Assembly: GCF_003334315.1 (NCBI RefSeq)
Contig: NZ_QOWR01000005.1
Direction: 5' to 3' (one strand)
DNA length: 64,000 bases
From: Escherichia coli
GTDB lineage: Bacteria; Pseudomonadota; Gammaproteobacteria; Enterobacterales; Enterobacteriaceae
Shown here: one piece after another, positions 49,105 to 61,008 of the stretch
Position numbering within the stretch: position 1 is the stretch's first letter
Layout: every line of letters begins with the position of its first letter
The notes under the pieces: generated by a model
What the model saw: the letters and a program-made list of their open reading frames with translations, nothing else
Told to the model about the DNA's origin: nothing
Databases searched by the model: none
Program-made: the position numbers and the translations under genes

Positions 49105-50191
49105 GATTGCCAATATTAAGAAGTCTTTTGGTCGCACCCAGGTGCTGAACGATATCTCACTGGATATTCCTTCAGGTCAGATGGCCGCGTTGCTGGGGCC
49201 GTCCGGTTCCGGGAAAACCACGCTGCTGCGCATTATCGCCGGGCTGGAGCATCAAACCAGCGGGCATATTCGCTTCCACGGCACCGACGTGAGCCGCCTG
49301 CACGCGCGCGATCGTAAAGTCGGTTTCGTGTTCCAGCATTACGCGCTGTTCCGCCATATGACGGTATTCGACAATATCGCTTTTGGCCTGACGGTGCTGC
49401 CGCGTCGCGAGCGCCCGAATGCCACAGCCATCAAAGCGAAAGTGACAAAATTGCTGGAAATGATCCAGCTTGCGCATCTGGCGGATCGTTATCCGGCGCA
49501 GCTTTCCGGCGGCCAGAAACAGCGTGTGGCGCTGGCGCGCGCGCTGGCTGTAGAACCGCAAATTCTGCTGCTTGATGAACCGTTTGGCGCGCTGGATGCG
49601 CAGGTGCGTAAAGAGCTGCGTCGCTGGCTGCGTCAACTGCATGAAGAGCTGAAATTCACCAGCGTGTTTGTGACCCACGACCAGGAAGAGGCGACCGAAG
49701 TAGCCGATCGTGTAGTGGTGATGAGTCAGGGGAATATTGAACAGGCTGATGCGCCGAATCAGGTATGGCGCGAACCAGCGACCCGTTTTGTACTCGAATT
49801 TATGGGCGAAGTGAACCGCCTGCAGGGAACCATTCGCGGCGGGCAGTTCCATGTTGGCGCACATCGCTGGCCGCTGGGCTACACACCTGCTTATCAGGGG
49901 CCGGTGGATCTCTTCCTGCGCCCGTGGGAAGTGGATATCAGCCGCCGTACCAGTCTCGATTCGCCGCTGCCGGTACAGGTACTGGAAGCCAGCCCGAAAG
50001 GTCACTACACCCAATTAGTGGTGCAGCCGCTGGGGTGGTACAACGAACCGCTGACGGTCGTGATGCATGGCGACGATGCCCCGCAGCGTGGCGAGCGTTT
50101 ATTCGTTGGTCTGCAACATGCGCGGCTGTATAACGGCGACGAGCGTATCGAAACCCGCGATGAGGAACTTGCTCTCGCACAAAGCGCCTGA
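49094..50191 (+). CDS. cysA: Sulfate/thiosulfate ABC transporter ATPase CysA
   Basis: 365 aa; Walker [10 protein letters not shown], signature LSGGQKQR, Walker B LLLDEPF; overlaps cysW by 11 nt. Confidence 0.93.
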
Positions 50192-50212
50192 TAGGTTGAG
50201 TGAATGTTAAAC

Positions 50213-50301
50213 GCCCGGAGGCGCTTCCCGCGATCCGGGCTTTTTAATGGCAAGGTTTGTAACCTGTAGACCTGATAAGACGCGCAAGCGTCGCATCAGG
50301 C
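50213..50301 (+). terminator. Terminator-like hairpin plus REP between cysA and cysM
   Basis: cccgga...tccggg stem followed by cttttta (about 50213-50245); REP gtagacctgataagacgcgcaagcgtcgcatcaggc (about 50265-50301). Confidence 0.6.
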
Positions 50302-50324
50302 AACACCACGTATGGATAGAGATC

Positions 50325-51236
50325 GTGAGTACATTAGAACAAACAATAGGCAATACGCCTCTGGTGAAGTTGCAGCGAATGGGGCCGGATAACGGCAGTG
50401 AAGTGTGGTTAAAACTGGAAGGCAATAACCCGGCAGGTTCGGTGAAAGATCGTGCGGCACTTTCGATGATCGTCGAGGCGGAAAAGCGCGGGGAAATTAA
50501 ACCGGGTGATGTCTTAATCGAAGCCACCAGTGGTAACACCGGCATTGCGCTGGCAATGATTGCCGCGCTGAAAGGCTATCGCATGAAATTGCTGATGCCC
50601 GACAACATGAGCCAGGAACGCCGTGCGGCGATGCGTGCTTATGGTGCGGAACTGATTCTTGTCACCAAAGAGCAGGGCATGGAAGGTGCGCGCGATCTGG
50701 CGCTGGAGATGGCGAATCGTGGCGAAGGAAAGCTGCTCGATCAGTTTAATAATCCCGATAACCCTTACGCCCATTACACCACTACCGGGCCGGAAATCTG
50801 GCAGCAAACCGGCGGGCGCATTACCCATTTTGTCTCCAGCATGGGAACAACCGGCACTATCACCGGCGTTTCACGCTTTATGCGCGAACAATCCAAACCA
50901 GTAACGATTGTTGGCCTGCAGCCGGAAGAAGGCAGCAGTATTCCCGGCATTCGCCGCTGGCCTGCGGAATATCTGCCGGGGATTTTCAACGCTTCTCTGG
51001 TGGATGAGGTGCTGGATATTCATCAGCGCGATGCAGAAAACACCATGCGCGAACTGGCAGTGCGGGAAGGAATATTCTGTGGCGTCAGCTCCGGCGGCGC
51101 GGTTGCCGGAGCACTGCGGGTGGCAAAAGCTAACCCTGGTGCGGTGGTGGTAGCGATCATCTGCGATCGTGGCGATCGCTACCTTTCCACCGGGGTGTTT
51201 GGGGAAGAGCATTTTAGCCAGGGGGCGGGGATTTAA
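50325..51236 (+). CDS. cysM: Cysteine synthase B (O-acetylserine sulfhydrylase B)
   Basis: 303 aa from GTG 50325 (MSTLEQTIGNTPLVKL...); PLP lysine motif SVKDR; ORF track extends 26 codons upstream. Confidence 0.9.
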   Translation: MSTLEQTIGNTPLVKLQRMGPDNGSEVWLKLEGNNPAGSVKDRAALSMIVEAEKRGEIKPGDVLIEATSGNTGIALAMIAALKGYRMKLLMPDNMSQERRAAMRAYGAELILVTKEQGMEGARDLALEMANRGEGKLLDQFNNPDNPYAHYTTTGPEIWQQTGGRITHFVSSMGTTGTITGVSRFMREQSKPVTIVGLQPEEGSSIPGIRRWPAEYLPGIFNASLVDEVLDIHQRDAENTMRELAVREGIFCGVSSGGAVAGALRVAKANPGAVVVAIICDRGDRYLSTGVFGEEHFSQGAGI

Positions 51237-51238
51237 GA

Positions 51239-51607
51239 TTATTGCGCAGGCACCGTTTTATCCGTCTGCGCAATTAGCGCATGTAAAAAAGGCTGTGCGT
51301 TCTCATCGCTCTTACCGGGGATCTTCACAATATACGGCTTCCCGGTAATCGATGACGACGAAGCAACCTTATCAATAAACTGCTCGGCAGTGTCAATGCG
51401 GTTACGGGTATTGCCGAGCTTCAGACGCAGATGAGAAACCGCTTCATAGCAGGTATGTTCATCACCGTTGCGCACAAATATCAAATCCTTTTTCTGTGCT
51501 AATCCCTCCAGCATGGCGTTGATGCGGGCTTCTTCATGGGCAGTTAACTTCGCGTAAACGGGGAGTGTCATTAGTAGTGTAATGACCAGACAAATGATTT
51601 TCTTCAT
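51239..51607 (-). CDS. yfeK: Secreted protein YfeK
   Basis: 122 aa; signal peptide ([19 protein letters not shown]); stop 2 bp from the convergent cysM stop. Confidence 0.75.
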
Positions 51608-51632
51608 TGAATTACCTTATCCTTGTTTTGTG

Positions 51633-51675
<43 letters not shown>

Positions 51676-51711
51676 TTACGATGAGGATCATCGGCAAGGA
51701 GAAAAAATTAA

Positions 51712-52563
51712 ATGAGTAGTTTGTTGTTGTTTAACGATAAGAGTAGGGCACTGCAGGCGGATATCGTCGCCGTGCAGTCGCAGGTGGTTTACGGCAGCGT
51801 GGGCAACAGCATTGCCGTGCCTGCTATCAAACAGAACGGCCTGAATGTCTTTGCCGTGCCGACGGTATTGCTGAGCAATACGCCGCATTATGACACTTTC
51901 TACGGTGGTGCGATTCCGGACGAATGGTTTAGCGGCTATTTGCGTGCGCTTCAGGAGCGTGATGCGCTGCGCCAACTTCGTGCTGTAACCACGGGCTATA
52001 TGGGAACGGCATCGCAAATCAAAATCCTTGCCGAGTGGCTGACTGCGCTACGCAAAGACCATCCTGACCTATTGATCATGGTCGATCCGGTGATTGGCGA
52101 TATTGATAGCGGAATTTATGTCAAACCTGACCTTCCCGAAGCGTATCGACAATATTTACTGCCGCTGGCGCAGGGAATTACCCCCAATATCTTTGAGTTG
52201 GAAATCCTGACCGGTAAAAATTGCCGCGATCTCGACAGTGCCATTGCTGCCGCAAAAAGTCTGCTTTCAGACACATTAAAATGGGTGGTGGTTACCAGCG
52301 CCTCCGGTAATGAAGAAAATCAGGAGATGCAGGTTGTGGTGGTCACTGCCGACAGCGTGAATGTCATTTCCCATTCACGGGTAAAAACCGACCTGAAAGG
52401 GACTGGCGACCTGTTTTGTGCTCAGCTCATCAGTGGCTTGCTGAAAGGGAAGGCGTTAACCGATGCAGTGCACCGAGCGGGGTTGCGCGTACTGGAAGTG
52501 ATGCGCTACACCCAGCAGCATGAGAGCGATGAATTGATTTTGCCGCCGCTGGCGGAAGCATAA
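51712..52563 (+). CDS. pdxK: Pyridoxine/pyridoxal/pyridoxamine kinase
   Basis: 283 aa; ribokinase-superfamily PdxK sequence. Confidence 0.9.
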
Positions 52564-52594
52564 AAAAATGGCGCCGATGGGCGCCATTTTTCAC
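52562..52594. terminator. Bidirectional Rho-independent terminator between convergent pdxK and crr
   Basis: aaaaaaa-tggcgcc-gatg-ggcgcca-ttttt. Confidence 0.85.
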
Positions 52595-52605
52595 TGCGGC
52601 AAGAA

Positions 52606-53115
52606 TTACTTCTTGATGCGGATAACCGGGGTTTCACCCACGGTTACGCTACCGGACAGTTTGATCAGTTCTTTGATTTCGTCCATGTTGGAGATAACAA
52701 CCGGAGTCAGGGTAGACTTGGCTTTCTCTTCCAGCAGCGGCAGATCAAATTCAATGACAGTATCGCCAACTTTCACGCGCTGACCTTCTTCAGCAATACG
52801 CTTGAAGCCTTCGCCTTTCAGTTCAACGGTGTCGATACCGAAGTGGACGAACAGTTCAACGCCGCTATCAGATTCGATAGAGAATGCGTGGTTGGTTTCA
52901 AAGATTTTACCAATGGTGCCGTCTACTGGCGCGACCATTTTGTTACCCGTTGGTTTGATAGCAATACCATCACCAACGATTTTTTCCGCAAAAACGACAT
53001 CCGGCACGTCTTCGATATTGACGATCTCGCCAGAGAGCGGAGCAATGATCTCAATAGTTCCGGTATCCTTCTTGTCGTCGGAAACCAGAGATTTCAGTTT
53101 ATCGAACAAACCCAT
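52606..53115 (-). CDS. crr: PTS glucose-specific EIIA (Crr)
   Basis: 169 aa; EIIA-Glc sequence. Confidence 0.95.
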
Positions 53116-53155
53116 GATCTTCTCCTAAGCAGTAAATTGGGCCGCATCTCGTGGA

Positions 53156-54883
53156 TTAGCAGATTGTTTTTTCTTCAATGAACTTGTTAACCAGCGTCAT
53201 TAACTCGTCCGTTGTCGGTTGAGCAAGAGCCTGCTCTGCTAACACCTTCGCATCTTCGAAGTTCGTGTTACGGATAATCTTCTTAATGCGCGGGATAGAA
53301 ATGGCGCTCATAGAGAATTCGTCCAGACCCATCCCCAGCAACAGAAGTGTAGCACGTTCATCGCCAGCAAGCTCACCACACATGCCAGTCCATTTGCCTT
53401 CAGCATGAGAAGCATCAATAACTTGCTTGATCAAGTTCAGCACGGACGGTGACATTGGCTGGTAAAGGTGTGAAATCATATCATTACCACGGTCAACTGC
53501 CAGAGTGTACTGCGTTAAATCATTGGTGCCGATACTAAAGAAATCAACTTCTTTGGCTAAATGACGTGCAATTGTTGCGGCAGCCGGTGTTTCCACCATT
53601 ACGCCGATTTCAATTGACTCGTCAAACGCTTTACCTTCGTCGCGCAGTTCCTGTTTGTAGATTTCGATCTCTTTGCGCAGTGCACGCACTTCTTCAACAG
53701 AGATGATCATCGGGAACATAATGCGCAATTTACCGAAAGCCGAGGCACGCAGGATAGCGCGGAGCTGATCGCGCAGGATCTCTCTACGATCCATCGCGAT
53801 ACGGATAGCGCGCCAGCCGAGGAACGGGTTCTCTTCTTTCGGGAAGTTCATGTATGGCAGCTCTTTGTCGCCGCCGATGTCCATGGTACGAACGATAACC
53901 GCTTGCGAGCCACACGCTTCAGCCACTGCTTTGTAAGCAGCAAACTGTTCTTCTTCAGTGGGCAGTGCGTCGCGGTCCATGAACAGGAACTCAGTACGAT
54001 ACAGACCAACGCCTTCAGCGCCGTTACGCTCTGCACCTTCAACGTCACGAACCGTACCAATGTTAGCGCATACTTCTACCTGGTGACCGTCCAGCGTAAT
54101 AGCTGGCAGATCTTTCAGTTTAGCAAGCTCTGCTTTTTCAGAAGCCACTTGCTCCTGAACAGCGCGCATTTTATCAATAACTTCGTTGGTTGGATTGACG
54201 TAAACCTGATTATTTACGGCATCCAGAATCAGATAGTCGTCATTTTTCACCTGAGAGGTGACGCTACCGGTACCCACGATAGCAGGTAGTTCCAGAGAAC
54301 GCGCCATGATAGAGGTGTGGGAAGTACGGCCACCCGCGTCGGTGATGAAACCCAGCACCTTCTTCAGGTTCAGCTGTGCGGTTTCGGACGGCGTCAGGTC
54401 AGCGGCAACCAGAATGACTTCATCCTGAATGGCGCTCAGGTCGATAATCTTCAGGCCCAGGATGTTGCGCAGCAGGCGCTTACCGATATCACGTACGTCA
54501 GCCGCACGTTCTTTCAGGTATTCATCATCCAGCTCTTCCAGGGCAGAAGCCTGACCTTCGATAACTTCATGAGCAGCTGCGTCAGCTGTCATGTGCTTAT
54601 CTTTAATCAGGGCTATGATTTCCTGCTCCAGCTCCTCATCTTCGAGCAGCATAATATGCCCTTCAAAGATGGCTTCTTTTTCTTCACCGAACGTTTCACC
54701 AGCTTTCGTTTTGATCGTTTCCAGCTGGGCTGATGCCTTGGCACGACCGCTCAGAAAACGTTCAACTTCCTGATCAACCTGGTCGGCAGAAATTTTTTTC
54801 CGGTCAATGACAATTTCGTCTTCTTTCAGAAGCAGAGCTTTACCGAAAGCGATACCCGGGGATGCTAAAATGCCTGAAATCAT
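53156..54883 (-). CDS. ptsI: PTS Enzyme I
   Basis: 575 aa; PEP-utilising enzyme with active-site His region ([12 protein letters not shown]). Confidence 0.95.
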
Positions 54884-54927
54884 AACCCTACCTTACTTGT
54901 GACTGATTTTTAAAAGAACCCGGGAAA

Positions 54928-55185
54928 TTACTCGAGTTCCGCCATCAGTTTAACCAGATGTTCAACCGCTTTCTGCTCGTCTTCGCCTTCTGCGGAGATA
55001 GTCACAACGGTACCTTGAGTCAGGCCCAGAGTCTGCAGTTTAAACAGGCTTTTCGCGCTGGCGCTTTTGCCGTTGGAAGTCACAGTAATTTCAGAAGTGA
55101 AGCCCTTAGCTTCTTTTACAAACTGGGCAGCAGGGCGGGTGTGCAGACCGTTCGGAGCGGTAATGGTAACTTCTTGCTGGAACAT
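54928..55185 (-). CDS. ptsH: Phosphocarrier protein HPr
   Basis: 85 aa; His15 motif GLHTRPAA. Confidence 0.95.
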
Positions 55186-55189
55186 TGTA

Positions 55190-55510
55190 TTTCCCCAACT
55201 TATAGGTTTAGTGTTGTGGAACTAAAGTCTAGCCTGGCGGTTCGACTTTAGCCTGTATTGTTAGCGCCAGTTTTTAACAGACGCGACGCACGAAGAGCGC
55301 AATACAGTCCATTGCTGGCGGGTGTTGACCGCTGACGTTTCGTACGTCATTAAACATTATGCCGCTAAAGGAAGAATTGAACCAAATCATAAAATCGATT
55401 CAGCTTTGGCTTTTCCTGTAACGATTAATTTCGCGCATCAAAATAATTAGTCTGGTTAAATACCAGTTCCGACAGGCTGAATCAATGCCAGGAGGGGCGA
55501 AAGTTTGAAG
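55190..55510 (-). promoter_or_regulatory. ptsHI promoter region
   Basis: about 320 bp non-coding AT-rich region upstream of ptsH; individual promoters and CRP sites not resolved by eye. Confidence 0.45.
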
Positions 55511-55517
55511 CAGGCCA

Positions 55518-55546
55518 CAAAAAAGCACCTAAAAAGGTGCTTTTTT
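55518..55546 (-). terminator. cysK Rho-independent terminator (bidirectional geometry)
   Basis: aaaaaa-gcacc-taaaaa-ggtgc-tttttt just downstream of the cysK stop. Confidence 0.8.
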
Positions 55547-55568
55547 ACGCATTTTTAACAAGCTGGCA

Positions 55569-56540
55569 TTACTGTTGCAATTCTTTCTCAGTGAAGAGAT
55601 CGGCAAACAATGCGGTGCTTAAATAACGCTCACCCGATGATGGTAGAATAACCACAATATTCTTGTTGGTAAAGCTTTCATCTTCTTGTAGTTTCAACGC
55701 CGCGGCAACAGCTGCTCCAGAAGAGATACCTGCAAGAATACCTTCTTCTTCCATCAGACGACGCGCGGTAGAAATCGCTTCTTCATTGGTGATGCCAATG
55801 ACTTTATCGACCAGCTTGAGATCGAGGTTAGCCGGGATAAAACCAGCGCCAATACCCTGAATTTTATGCGGGCCAGGTTTAATCTCTTCACCTGCCAGCG
55901 CCTGGGCGATAACTGGAGAATCGGTTGGCTCAACGGCGACAGAGATAAGATCGGTCTTGCCTTTGGTGCCTTTAATGTAGCGGCTGACGCCAGTCAGCGT
56001 ACCGCCAGTCCCAACGCCAGCAATAAATACATCAACCTGACCGTCGGTATCTTCCCATATCTCCGGACCGGTGGTCTTTTCGTGAATTTCAGGGTTTGCC
56101 GGATTGCTGAATTGTTGCAGCAGCAGGTATTTCTCTGGATTGCTGGCGACAATTTCTTCTGCTTTTTGGATTGCGCCTTTCATGCCTTTAGCACCTTCCG
56201 TCAGCACCAGGTTTGCACCTAACGCTTTCAGCAGCTTGCGGCGTTCAATACTCATGGTTTCTGGCATGGTCAGGGTGAGTTTGTAACCGCGAGCGGCAGC
56301 TACATAGGCCAGTGCAATCCCGGTATTACCGCTGGTCGGTTCAACCAGTTCAACGCCTGGTTTCAGCACGCCGCGCTTTTCGGCATCCCAAATCATGTTG
56401 GCACCGATACGGCACTTAACGCTGAAGCTGGGGTTACGAGATTCCACCTTCGCCAGAATGCGTCCGTTACCGATGCGATTCAGGCGAACCAGCGGCGTGT
56501 GACCGATAGTCAGCGAGTTATCTTCAAAAATCTTACTCAT
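55569..56540 (-). CDS. cysK: Cysteine synthase A (O-acetylserine sulfhydrylase A)
   Basis: 323 aa; PLP lysine motif SVKCR. Confidence 0.95.
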
Positions 56541-56724
56541 GGCCTGTCCTTAACTGTATGAAATTGGGATACAACAGGTAGCATACCCGCTCAGAGAATA
56601 TGCGGAAGTAAGGATTTAGCATATCTATATACAGAAGGGAAATAATGACATGCAAGATGGAATAAGGGGCGGCATAAGCCACCCCTGTTTCACACAAACG
56701 GTTTACAAAATAACCGGTAGATTG

Positions 56725-57486
56725 TTACCGCCACATCGCGTGTTTATCGCGATAGCAATCGACCCACATCGCCGTCGCGCCACAAACGGCAACGGGCATG
56801 ATGAACAGATTAAGCAGCGGGATCATCGTAAACAGGCTGGTTAAAGCACCAAACTGCATATTGGTGATTTTGCGTGTGCGCAGGGCGGTGCGCATCTCTT
56901 TAAACGGCACTTTGTGGTTATCGAAGGGGTAATCGCAATACTGGATGGCTAACATCCAGGCGCTAAACAGGAACCACAGTACCGGCGCGACGGTTTGCCC
57001 AATACCAGGGATGAAGTAAAGAATTAGTAATACAATTGCGCGCGGCAGATACCAGGCAAATTTTTGCCATTCGCGTTTCATGATTCGCGGCACATCTTTC
57101 ATGATACCGAAAATCCCGGTATCTGGCGGTGTAGCGCCAGTCAATCGTGCTTCCAGTTGTTCAGCCAATAAACCGTTAAACGGAGCGGCAATCCAGTTAG
57201 CAATCGTGGAGAAGAAATAGCCAAACACTAACAGCACAGAGATGACAGCCAGAGGCCACAACAGATAACTCAGCCATTGTAGCCAGTCCGGAACGTAACT
57301 CATGAGAGTCGGGATCCAGACATCGAGCTGTGTAAAGAGCCACCAGAATGCGCCCCCCATCAACAAAATATTGACCAGCAGCGGTAAAATAACGAAACGC
57401 CGAATCCCAGGTTGCGAGACGAGCTTCCAGCCTTGCGCAAAATAGTAAAAACCGCTGCGTGGGGCAGATGTGAATGATGAAACCAT
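56725..57486 (-). CDS. cysZ: Sulfate transporter CysZ
   Basis: 253 aa; polytopic membrane protein; divergent from zipA. Confidence 0.9.
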
Positions 57487-57715
57487 AATCAGGATGAGCT
57501 CCTTTTGACCAATCCCAGGAAAATTCTGCGTATTTTACCGGGTAATTGCGCAATGGACAGTTAGGATATGTTCGAAAAAACAGCAAAAAGCACGATTTCA
57601 TCTATCTTTGTGCTGTGAAAGTTAATAGTGCACTTGCACTTGAGGTAATCGGCAAATACTCTTAGTGAGTAAATGTTTGCCGTGGTGGCAAGGTGTTAGA
57701 ACAACAGAGAATATA

Positions 57716-58702
57716 ATGATGCAGGATTTGCGTCTGATATTAATCATTGTTGGCGCGATCGCCATAATCGCTTTACTGGTACATGGTTTCTGGACCAGCC
57801 GTAAAGAACGATCTTCTATGTTCCGCGATCGGCCATTAAAACGAATGAAGTCAAAACGTGACGACGATTCTTATGACGAGGATGTCGAAGATGATGAGGG
57901 CGTTGGTGAGGTTCGTGTTCACCGCGTGAATCATGCCCCGGCTAACGCTCAGGAGCATGAGGCTGCTCGTCCGTCGCCGCAACACCAGTACCAACCGCCT
58001 TATGCGTCTGCGCAGCCGCGTCAACCGGTCCAGCAGCCGCCTGAAGCGCAGGTACCGCCGCAACATGCTCCGCATCCAGCGCAGCCGGTGCAGCAGCCTG
58101 CCTATCAGCCGCAGCCTGAACAGCCGTTGCAGCAGCCAGTTTCGCCACAGGTCGCGCCAGCGCCGCAGCCTGTGCATTCAGCACCGCAACCGGCACAACA
58201 GGCTTTCCAGCCTGCAGAACCCGTAGCGGCACCACAGCCTGAGCCTGTAGCGGAACCTGCTCCAGTTATGGATAAACCGAAGCGCAAAGAAGCGGTGATT
58301 ATCATGAACGTCGCGGCGCATCACGGTAGCGAGCTAAACGGTGAACTGCTTCTTAACAGCATTCAACAAGCGGGCTTCATTTTTGGCGATATGAATATTT
58401 ACCATCGTCATCTTAGCCCGGATGGCAGCGGCCCGGCGTTATTCAGCCTGGCGAATATGGTGAAACCGGGAACCTTTGATCCTGAAATGAAGGATTTCAC
58501 TACTCCGGGTGTCACTATCTTTATGCAGGTACCGTCTTACGGTGACGAGCTGCAGAACTTCAAGCTGATGCTGCAATCTGCGCAGCATATTGCCGATGAA
58601 GTGGGCGGTGTCGTGCTTGACGATCAGCGCCGTATGATGACTCCGCAGAAATTGCGCGAGTACCAGGACATCATCCGCGAAGTCAAAGACGCCAACGCCT
58701 GA
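57716..58702 (+). CDS. zipA: Cell division protein ZipA
   Basis: 328 aa from ATG 57716 ([18 protein letters not shown]...); N-terminal TM anchor, long P/Q-rich linker, C-terminal FtsZ-binding domain. Confidence 0.92.
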
Positions 58703-58732
58703 TACACTTAAGGCAAATTAACTCCTCTTCGA

Positions 58733-58756
58733 ACCCCCGCTTGTCGGGGGTTTTTA
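58733..58756 (+). terminator. Hairpin plus T-run after zipA
   Basis: cccccgc-ttgt-cggggg-ttttt. Confidence 0.7.
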
Positions 58757-58763
58757 GCATTGA

Positions 58764-60788
<2,025 letters not shown>

Positions 60789-60789
60789 G

Positions 60790-61008
60790 ATGGAAAAAGA
60801 GCAGCTGATTGAAATAGCCAATACGATAATGCCGTTTGGCAAATACAAAGGGCGTCGCTTAATCGACCTGCCGGAGGAGTATCTGCTGTGGTTTGCCCGC
60901 AAAGATGAGTTCCCGGCAGGGAAGCTCGGTGAGCTAATGCAAATCACGCTGCTGATTAAAACCGAGGGGCTGACGCAACTGGTCCAGCCCCTGAAGCGTC
61001 CGCTTTAA
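60790..61008 (+). CDS. ypeB: Small DUF3820-family protein YpeB
   Basis: 72 aa from ATG immediately after ligA stop (MEKEQLIEIANTIMPFGKYKG...); ORF track extends upstream inside ligA. Confidence 0.75.
   Translation: MEKEQLIEIANTIMPFGKYKGRRLIDLPEEYLLWFARKDEFPAGKLGELMQITLLIKTEGLTQLVQPLKRPL

Follow-up and report, generated by a model that had tools for sequence, protein, structure and literature searches.

The tight cysM-yfeK junction of an Escherichia coli strain: a common allele without yfeS at a locus where K-12 carries an accessory gene

The DNA considered here is a stretch of 64,000 nucleotides from an Escherichia coli contig (NZ_QOWR01000005.1; referred to below as the window), and the locus of interest is the point at which two convergent genes, cysM and yfeK, meet almost stop codon to stop codon. 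The first of these, cysM, encodes cysteine synthase B and occupies 50325..51236 on the + strand. According to the ORF list and to the annotation of a RefSeq genome that is 100% identical (L002 1126-2037), it specifies 303 amino acids from a GTG start at 50325 to a TAA stop at 51234-51236, and its product is 99.3% identical to K-12 CysM by tblastn. The cysA-cysM spacer on its upstream side contains a REP-type palindromic element (50255-50305), at which a partial, sub-threshold match to the Rfam family naRNA4 was recorded on the - strand (50270-50302). The program-made ORF list prolongs cysM upstream through this element to an ATG at 50247, which differs from the annotated start. On the other side of the junction yfeK lies on the - strand at 51239..51607 and encodes a 122 aa protein of the YfeK family (ORF list, NCBIfam NF007646, Pfam DUF5329) with the C-terminus ...KTVPAQ-stop; its TAA stop codon is read from the - strand at 51239-51241. 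Read directly from the sequence, the spacer between the two stop codons is the dinucleotide GA (51237..51238), and the separation of only 2 bp reported in an earlier note on this DNA is borne out by sequence and ORF list alike. Beyond yfeK, on its far side, pdxK follows on the + strand (51712..52563), and the ORF list and tblastn agree that its product is 100% identical to K-12 PdxK. When the K-12 proteins were used as tblastn queries, CysM, YfeK, PdxK and Crr were matched in the expected order, and YfeS gave no match anywhere in the 64-kb window. The earlier note was thus right that yfeS is missing: cysM and yfeK are contiguous, no yfeS homologue lies between them and the YfeK encoded is the 122-aa form ending in PAQ-stop, the features by which the yfeS-less allele discussed below is recognised.

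A 9-bp inverted repeat lies next to the junction at 51241..51274, its arms ATTGCGCAG (51241-51249) and CTGCGCAAT (51266-51274) being 16 nt apart and complementary at 9/9 positions, with a stem of 11 bp in RNA. It had been described as imperfect and as spanning the junction, but the pairing of the arms is perfect and the repeat lies wholly on the side of yfeK, inside the final 12 codons of that gene and starting at the last base of its stop codon. One suggestion is that the tight junction and the repeat together constitute a bidirectional terminator, maintained by selection for the benefit of both convergent genes. The hairpin does begin 5 nt after the cysM stop, K-12, with TTcCGCAG, has a shorter arm than the yfeS-less allele, and the G+C-rich stem of at least 5 bp that is looked for in an intrinsic terminator is provided by the 9-bp arms and the 11-bp RNA stem. 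An isolated 42-nt fragment, moreover, is predicted to fold as RNA at -16.3 kcal/mol on the + strand and -14.0 kcal/mol on the - strand, with z values of -3.7 and -3.1. In a context of 76 nt, however, the z values shrink to -0.6 (+) and -0.9 (-), and the fold is no better than that of shuffled sequences. The loop is 12-16 nt long, where 3-8 nt would be expected of an intrinsic terminator, and there is no U-run in the tails that follow the stem (UUAGCGCAUG on the + strand, AAUCUUAAAU on the - strand); given this lack of a U-tract, the repeat is not a canonical terminator. A scan for the terminator consensus called no site at the junction, and an Rfam search of 50100-51800 returned only the sub-threshold partial naRNA4 match in the cysA-cysM spacer and a chance match to a miRNA. 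Both arms are also coding sequence, specifying IAQ and PAQ-stop of YfeK, and, because TGCGCA is itself palindromic, coding constrains the two of them; a synonymous change from CCT to CCC in the GTDB representative genome of E. coli (L003) breaks one of the base pairs. Inverted repeats of similar size are frequent locally, five of 7-9 nt having been found in the 201 bp examined, so that the presence of a 9-bp pair is in itself unremarkable. Termination as the function of this repeat is accordingly improbable and, with a negative scan, a fold that is ordinary in context and no U-tract, was rejected. The repeat is most likely incidental; that it acts as a 3' stabiliser of both convergent transcripts is possible but unsupported.

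The annotated gene order in K-12 MG1655 is cysA, cysM, yfeS, yfeK, pdxK, crr, ptsI. The earlier note had placed a yfeS of roughly 240 aa between cysM and yfeK on the K-12 map, and the MG1655 record agrees, with a yfeS of 735 bp encoding 244 aa and annotated as a 'WGR domain-containing protein', and a yfeK of 375 bp. In the region from cysM to pdxK (b2421-b2418) the flanking genes, their order and their orientation are as in the window, and K-12 and the window are 100% identical in pdxK, crr and the greater part of yfeK, the identity extending rightwards from 51345 for 12.5 kb. Pairwise alignment of the interval with MG1655, a check that the earlier note had proposed, showed collinearity as far as one base past the cysM stop codon and again from CGCAGGCACC, inside yfeK, onwards. 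Between these points the window has an allele-specific 7 bp, ATTATTG (51238..51244), and K-12 has 966 bp. The inserted K-12 DNA is made up of palindromic elements of the REP/BIME type together with yfeS, a spacer of 32 bp and an alternative yfeK 3' end, whereas the window has neither the REP/BIME elements nor yfeS at the junction. It is because the insert brings this alternative 3' end that the YfeK C-termini differ, ...VPAQ-stop (122 aa) in the window and ...VPAEGN-stop (124 aa) in K-12, and YfeK thus exists in two natural C-terminal forms, one per allele. The shorter form is a normal intact protein, as it matches the NCBIfam equivalog NF007646 end to end (122/122 positions; 277 bits, the cutoff being 171), and Pfam DUF5329 is matched as well, with E = 5e-31.

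As regards the gene that is missing, residues 9-71 of K-12 YfeS constitute an N-terminal WGR domain (Pfam PF05406, E = 1.2e-17) and residues 1-68 match an uncharacterised Bacteroides fragilis protein, PDB 2ra8_A; the remaining 170 or so residues matched no family. It has been reported that yfeK and yfeS form one operon with a sigma-E promoter and that a K-12 yfeS deletion mutant is sensitive to boric acid (PMC11502571). Set against this description of K-12 as having both genes in one operon (PMC11502571), yfeK in the window is alone, and in yfeS-less strains there is no second gene after yfeK, which converges directly on cysM. From 51345 through pdxK the window is identical to K-12 and the upstream region of yfeK, including any such promoter, is therefore unchanged; judged from the sequence, the sigma-E promoter would drive yfeK alone in a yfeS-less strain. 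The existence of the two alleles may bear on studies of the sigma-E-linked yfeK-yfeS operon or of the boric-acid sensitivity of the K-12 yfeS mutant (PMC11502571).

The distribution of the two alleles was observed directly by tabulating them, as the earlier note had suggested should be done for yfeS, across 5426 complete E. coli genomes. A query of 90 bp with the junction at its centre was counted as contiguous if at least 80% of it was covered in one place, and on this basis 4037 genomes (74%) have the tight junction. The yfeS segment, scored as present when at least 80% of a K-12-specific 955-bp query was covered, was found in 1381 of the 5426 (25%), and in other genomes it is only the REP portion of this query (positions about 16-162) that matches, at many unrelated sites. 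Taken together the tight-junction class and the yfeS class account for 5418/5426 genomes. It had been proposed that the absence might be strain-specific, a proposal that cannot be maintained when it is K-12 that falls in the minority. With yfeS absent from about three quarters of E. coli, its absence is ordinary gene-content variation, a part of the pan-genome that is already known, and it is K-12 that is unusual. The K-12 map is consequently not the species default at the cysM-yfeK locus and, as only about one complete E. coli genome in four has yfeS, the lack of the gene in a strain ought not to be interpreted as a deletion. The yfeS-less genomes sampled include those of O103:H2, O104:H4, O157:H7, O25b:H4-ST131 and Nissle 1917, and the yfeS-bearing ones K-12 derivatives, BL21 and several small-genome isolates. 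The junction sequences of two RefSeq strains, E. coli ES1 and O103:H2 FWSEC0007, are identical to that of the window, the yfeS-less arrangement is the same in O104:H4, ST131 and Nissle 1917, and in the RefSeq annotation of the yfeS-less genomes cysM abuts a yfeK of 369 bp; there is no difference of substance between the window and this class, to which it belongs. The idea that the missing yfeS is an artefact of assembly or sequencing can be given practically no credence, since many complete genomes, independent of one another, have exactly the same bases at the junction, 1625 records match the 90-bp query at an identity of at least 99%, and several strains are 100% identical to the window over the surrounding 24.8 kb.

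Two variant genomes were examined, those of strains HYM1 and HCP17S3_I4, and each has an IS element at the junction locus. In HYM1, which is a yfeS-bearing strain, the element is IS1397 and lies between yfeS and cysM, in the REP/BIME region (L032 6752-8101), and in HCP17S3_I4, which is otherwise identical to the window, it is an IS1 near the tight junction. A further variant was seen in O157:H7 JEONG-1266, where yfeK is annotated as a frameshifted pseudogene (L027 2040-2407).

It was considered whether yfeS could be ancestral and have been deleted, either in the lineage of this strain or once early in the history of E. coli, by recombination between short direct repeats. An 8-bp direct repeat, GGATTAAT, is found exactly at both ends of the yfeS cassette in 4/4 yfeS-bearing alleles (K-12, Z226-6, BL21 and a Pseudocitrobacter MAG); one copy lies right after the cysM stop (L001 2038-2045 in K-12) and the other overlaps the yfeK stop (2990-2997 in K-12). 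The empty site holds one similar motif, GATTAT, which as a related copy could reflect an old deletion followed by divergence, and the right flank of the window is identical to that of K-12 for 12.5 kb, so that the recent relatives of the strain include strains with yfeS. The product predicted for a deletion between the repeats is, however, TAAGGATTAATTTCCTTCCGCAGG, that is TAA-GGATTAAT-TTCCTTCCGCAGG, with a YfeK ending PAEGN-stop, and the sequence observed is TAAGATTATTGCGCAGG, that is TAA-GATTAT-TGCGCAGG, with PAQ-stop. The clean deletion that the earlier note offered as one explanation is hence at odds with the alignment, in which 7 bp stand against 966 bp and the YfeK C-termini are different. 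The repeats themselves carry less weight than they might, 8-base direct repeats being common locally by chance (7 families in 996 bp of AT-rich sequence), and one junction sequence is common to 74% of E. coli and to Pseudocitrobacter faecalis. Two further observations, described below, also argue against deletion, namely that yfeS is compositionally foreign and that the abrupt change in SNP density at the indel suggests replacement of an allele rather than loss in situ. Deletion of an ancestral yfeS is therefore regarded as unlikely. Nor would the K-12 sequence be obtained by simple duplicative insertion into the empty site as it is observed and, as neither simple deletion nor simple insertion fits, the two alleles are old relative to each other.

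The nature of the cassette was also considered. There is no inverted-repeat pair joining its ends and no transposase, yfeS being its sole annotated gene in K-12. A transposon or MITE origin, for which terminal inverted repeats and/or a transposase would be looked for along with a target-site duplication, was rejected, although the 8-bp direct repeat is present. The GGATTAAT pair, found in K-12 and at loci L025, L029 and L005 (the last of these the Pseudocitrobacter MAG), may be a scar resembling a target-site duplication or a chance match.

The substitutions that distinguish the window from K-12 are very unevenly distributed around the junction. A cluster of 26 (50747..51344) brackets the indel: there are none in 49955-50746, 24 in 50747-51188, corresponding to the cysM 3' half (in which the two differ at 24/491 positions), 2 in the first 100 bp of the shared part of yfeK and none from 51345 onwards. 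With the comparison extended to 50 kb, 51245-63797 has only the same 2 yfeK mismatches to K-12 over 12.5 kb (99.98% identity), and 31195-51241 is 98.2% identical (1.8% divergence), with 2-38 mismatches per kb. When the comparison was made with an O103:H2 strain, 49955-51344 of the window proved identical to it, whereas from 51345 rightwards the window is the same as K-12, with 17/1156 positions differing from the O103:H2 strain. The indel is thus situated at a sharp haplotype boundary, which indicates allele exchange by homologous recombination. The simplest reading of these sequence comparisons is that in one of the two lineages a homologous-recombination tract, carrying the alternative yfeS state, terminated within the 3' part of yfeK. 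A single flanking haplotype linked to yfeS was looked for and rejected: the three yfeS-bearing strains K-12, Z226-6 and BL21 all differ in their cysM 3' haplotypes, that of K-12 with many private SNPs, and no simple donor tract emerged from the comparison. Over 31195-63797 as a whole the window is a mosaic, relative to K-12, of SNP-free and SNP-dense kilobases, indicating recombination tracts.

The state of the junction outside the strains discussed so far was determined by scanning a genome collection with YfeK, which gave 22 loci (Salmonella and E. fergusonii not being among them), annotated by tblastn and by the position of both stop codons. The GTDB representative of E. coli (L003) has the same tight junction as the window and is without yfeS. 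Pseudocitrobacter faecalis DSM 27453 (L006) also has a tight junction (...CCTGCGCAATAA, 2 bp, TTA...) together with a PAQ-stop YfeK and without yfeS, so the 2-bp spacer length of the window recurs in both of these genomes. In Escherichia sp. E1V33, a member of a cryptic clade, cysM and yfeK overlap by 12 bp, and in Citrobacter amalonaticus and Superficieibacter sp. 1612_C1 they are separated by spacers of 31-32 bp; yfeS is absent from all three. The G+C content of yfeS is 39%, compared with 56.5% for cysM, 46% for yfeK and 52% for pdxK. In a Pseudocitrobacter MAG (L005 5408-6139) yfeS was found at the same site, with the K-12-type PAEGN-stop end of YfeK, and its DNA is 95-99% identical to K-12 yfeS; on the same contig pdxK is only 61-79% (about 65%) and the 5' half of yfeK 57-82% identical to K-12. 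A near-identical gene between diverged flanks is the mark of a cassette recently exchanged laterally between genera. Outside the enterobacterial cluster, YfeS has its nearest full-length relative in a metagenomic sequence with 65% identity, and the named relatives, at 54-58% identity or lower, come from Paenibacillus, Dysgonomonas, Lysinibacillus and Clostridium.

Taken together, the outgroup junctions, the low G+C content and the near-identity of the MAG copy favour the view that yfeS is a laterally acquired accessory gene and that the tight junction is probably the older state, the polarity being what we infer from comparing sequences. Of the two options left by the earlier note, ancestral absence is the one better supported by allele frequency, outgroups, composition and the MAG copy, and it stands to that extent; the direction of change that the word 'ancestral' implies is a matter of probability. 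Both states occur in Escherichia and in Pseudocitrobacter (L005 with yfeS, L006 empty), so an older polymorphism or repeated loss is still conceivable. With these points weighed, we consider it quite probable that the strain carries the common yfeS-less allele by inheritance or exchange, and not as the result of a recent local deletion, and that yfeS was acquired laterally in a minority of E. coli. The gene would have arrived in a low-G+C segment of ~0.96 kb, together with the REP/BIME elements, at the junction in that minority, K-12 and BL21 included. The segment would then have moved from strain to strain, and even across genera, by homologous recombination in the conserved flanking genes cysM and yfeK, and the present strain would differ from K-12 through inheriting, or receiving in exchange, the alternative allele. 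It is the gain of yfeS rather than its loss, and recombination as the route of its spread, that we infer in this account.

Genes other than yfeS are found at the same position elsewhere. In E. albertii (L009 5370-6749) two ORFs of 280 and 175 aa, unrelated to yfeS, lie at the junction, in C. sedlakii (L011 5431-9142) there are two ORFs of 628 and 654 aa, and in S. electus (L012 5473-5895) there is an ORF of 140 aa that is SgcJ/EcaC-like, the NCBIfam match being borderline. An NCBIfam search with YfeS and the other cargo proteins matched only the WGR-like N-terminus of YfeS and the S. electus ORF. A defence-system identity for YfeS or the other cargo was considered and set aside, no family among the PADLOC-DB profiles having been matched at E <= 0.01 by the 7 proteins (YfeS and the other cargo). 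The position resembles accessory-gene insertion sites between enterobacterial core genes in that the cargo is different and unrelated from species to species, and differs from them in being without integrase, tRNA or transposase and in the small size of the cargo (0.5-3.8 kb). It might be supposed that the yfeK-cysM junction is a recurrent insertion site in the Enterobacteriaceae and that the yfeS cassette is a one-gene unit which inserts there by a site-directed, non-homologous mechanism. Such a mechanism would put a WGR-domain protein, on a cassette bounded by GGATTAAT, downstream of the sigma-E promoter reported for yfeK, and it would take the place of the simple spread of the cassette by homologous recombination; we regard it as speculative and rather improbable. 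Of some mild interest, nevertheless, are the variety of cargo across the Enterobacteriaceae and the near-identity of the yfeS cassette in two genera.

A second difference in gene content from K-12 was seen at the eutA-eutB junction of the window (~31195-31217), which is without the 6.8-kb CPZ-55 prophage of K-12 (intZ to yffS). This prophage interrupts the eut operon in MG1655, the extra K-12 DNA corresponding to 34113-40885 of locus L030, and the window is contiguous at that point.
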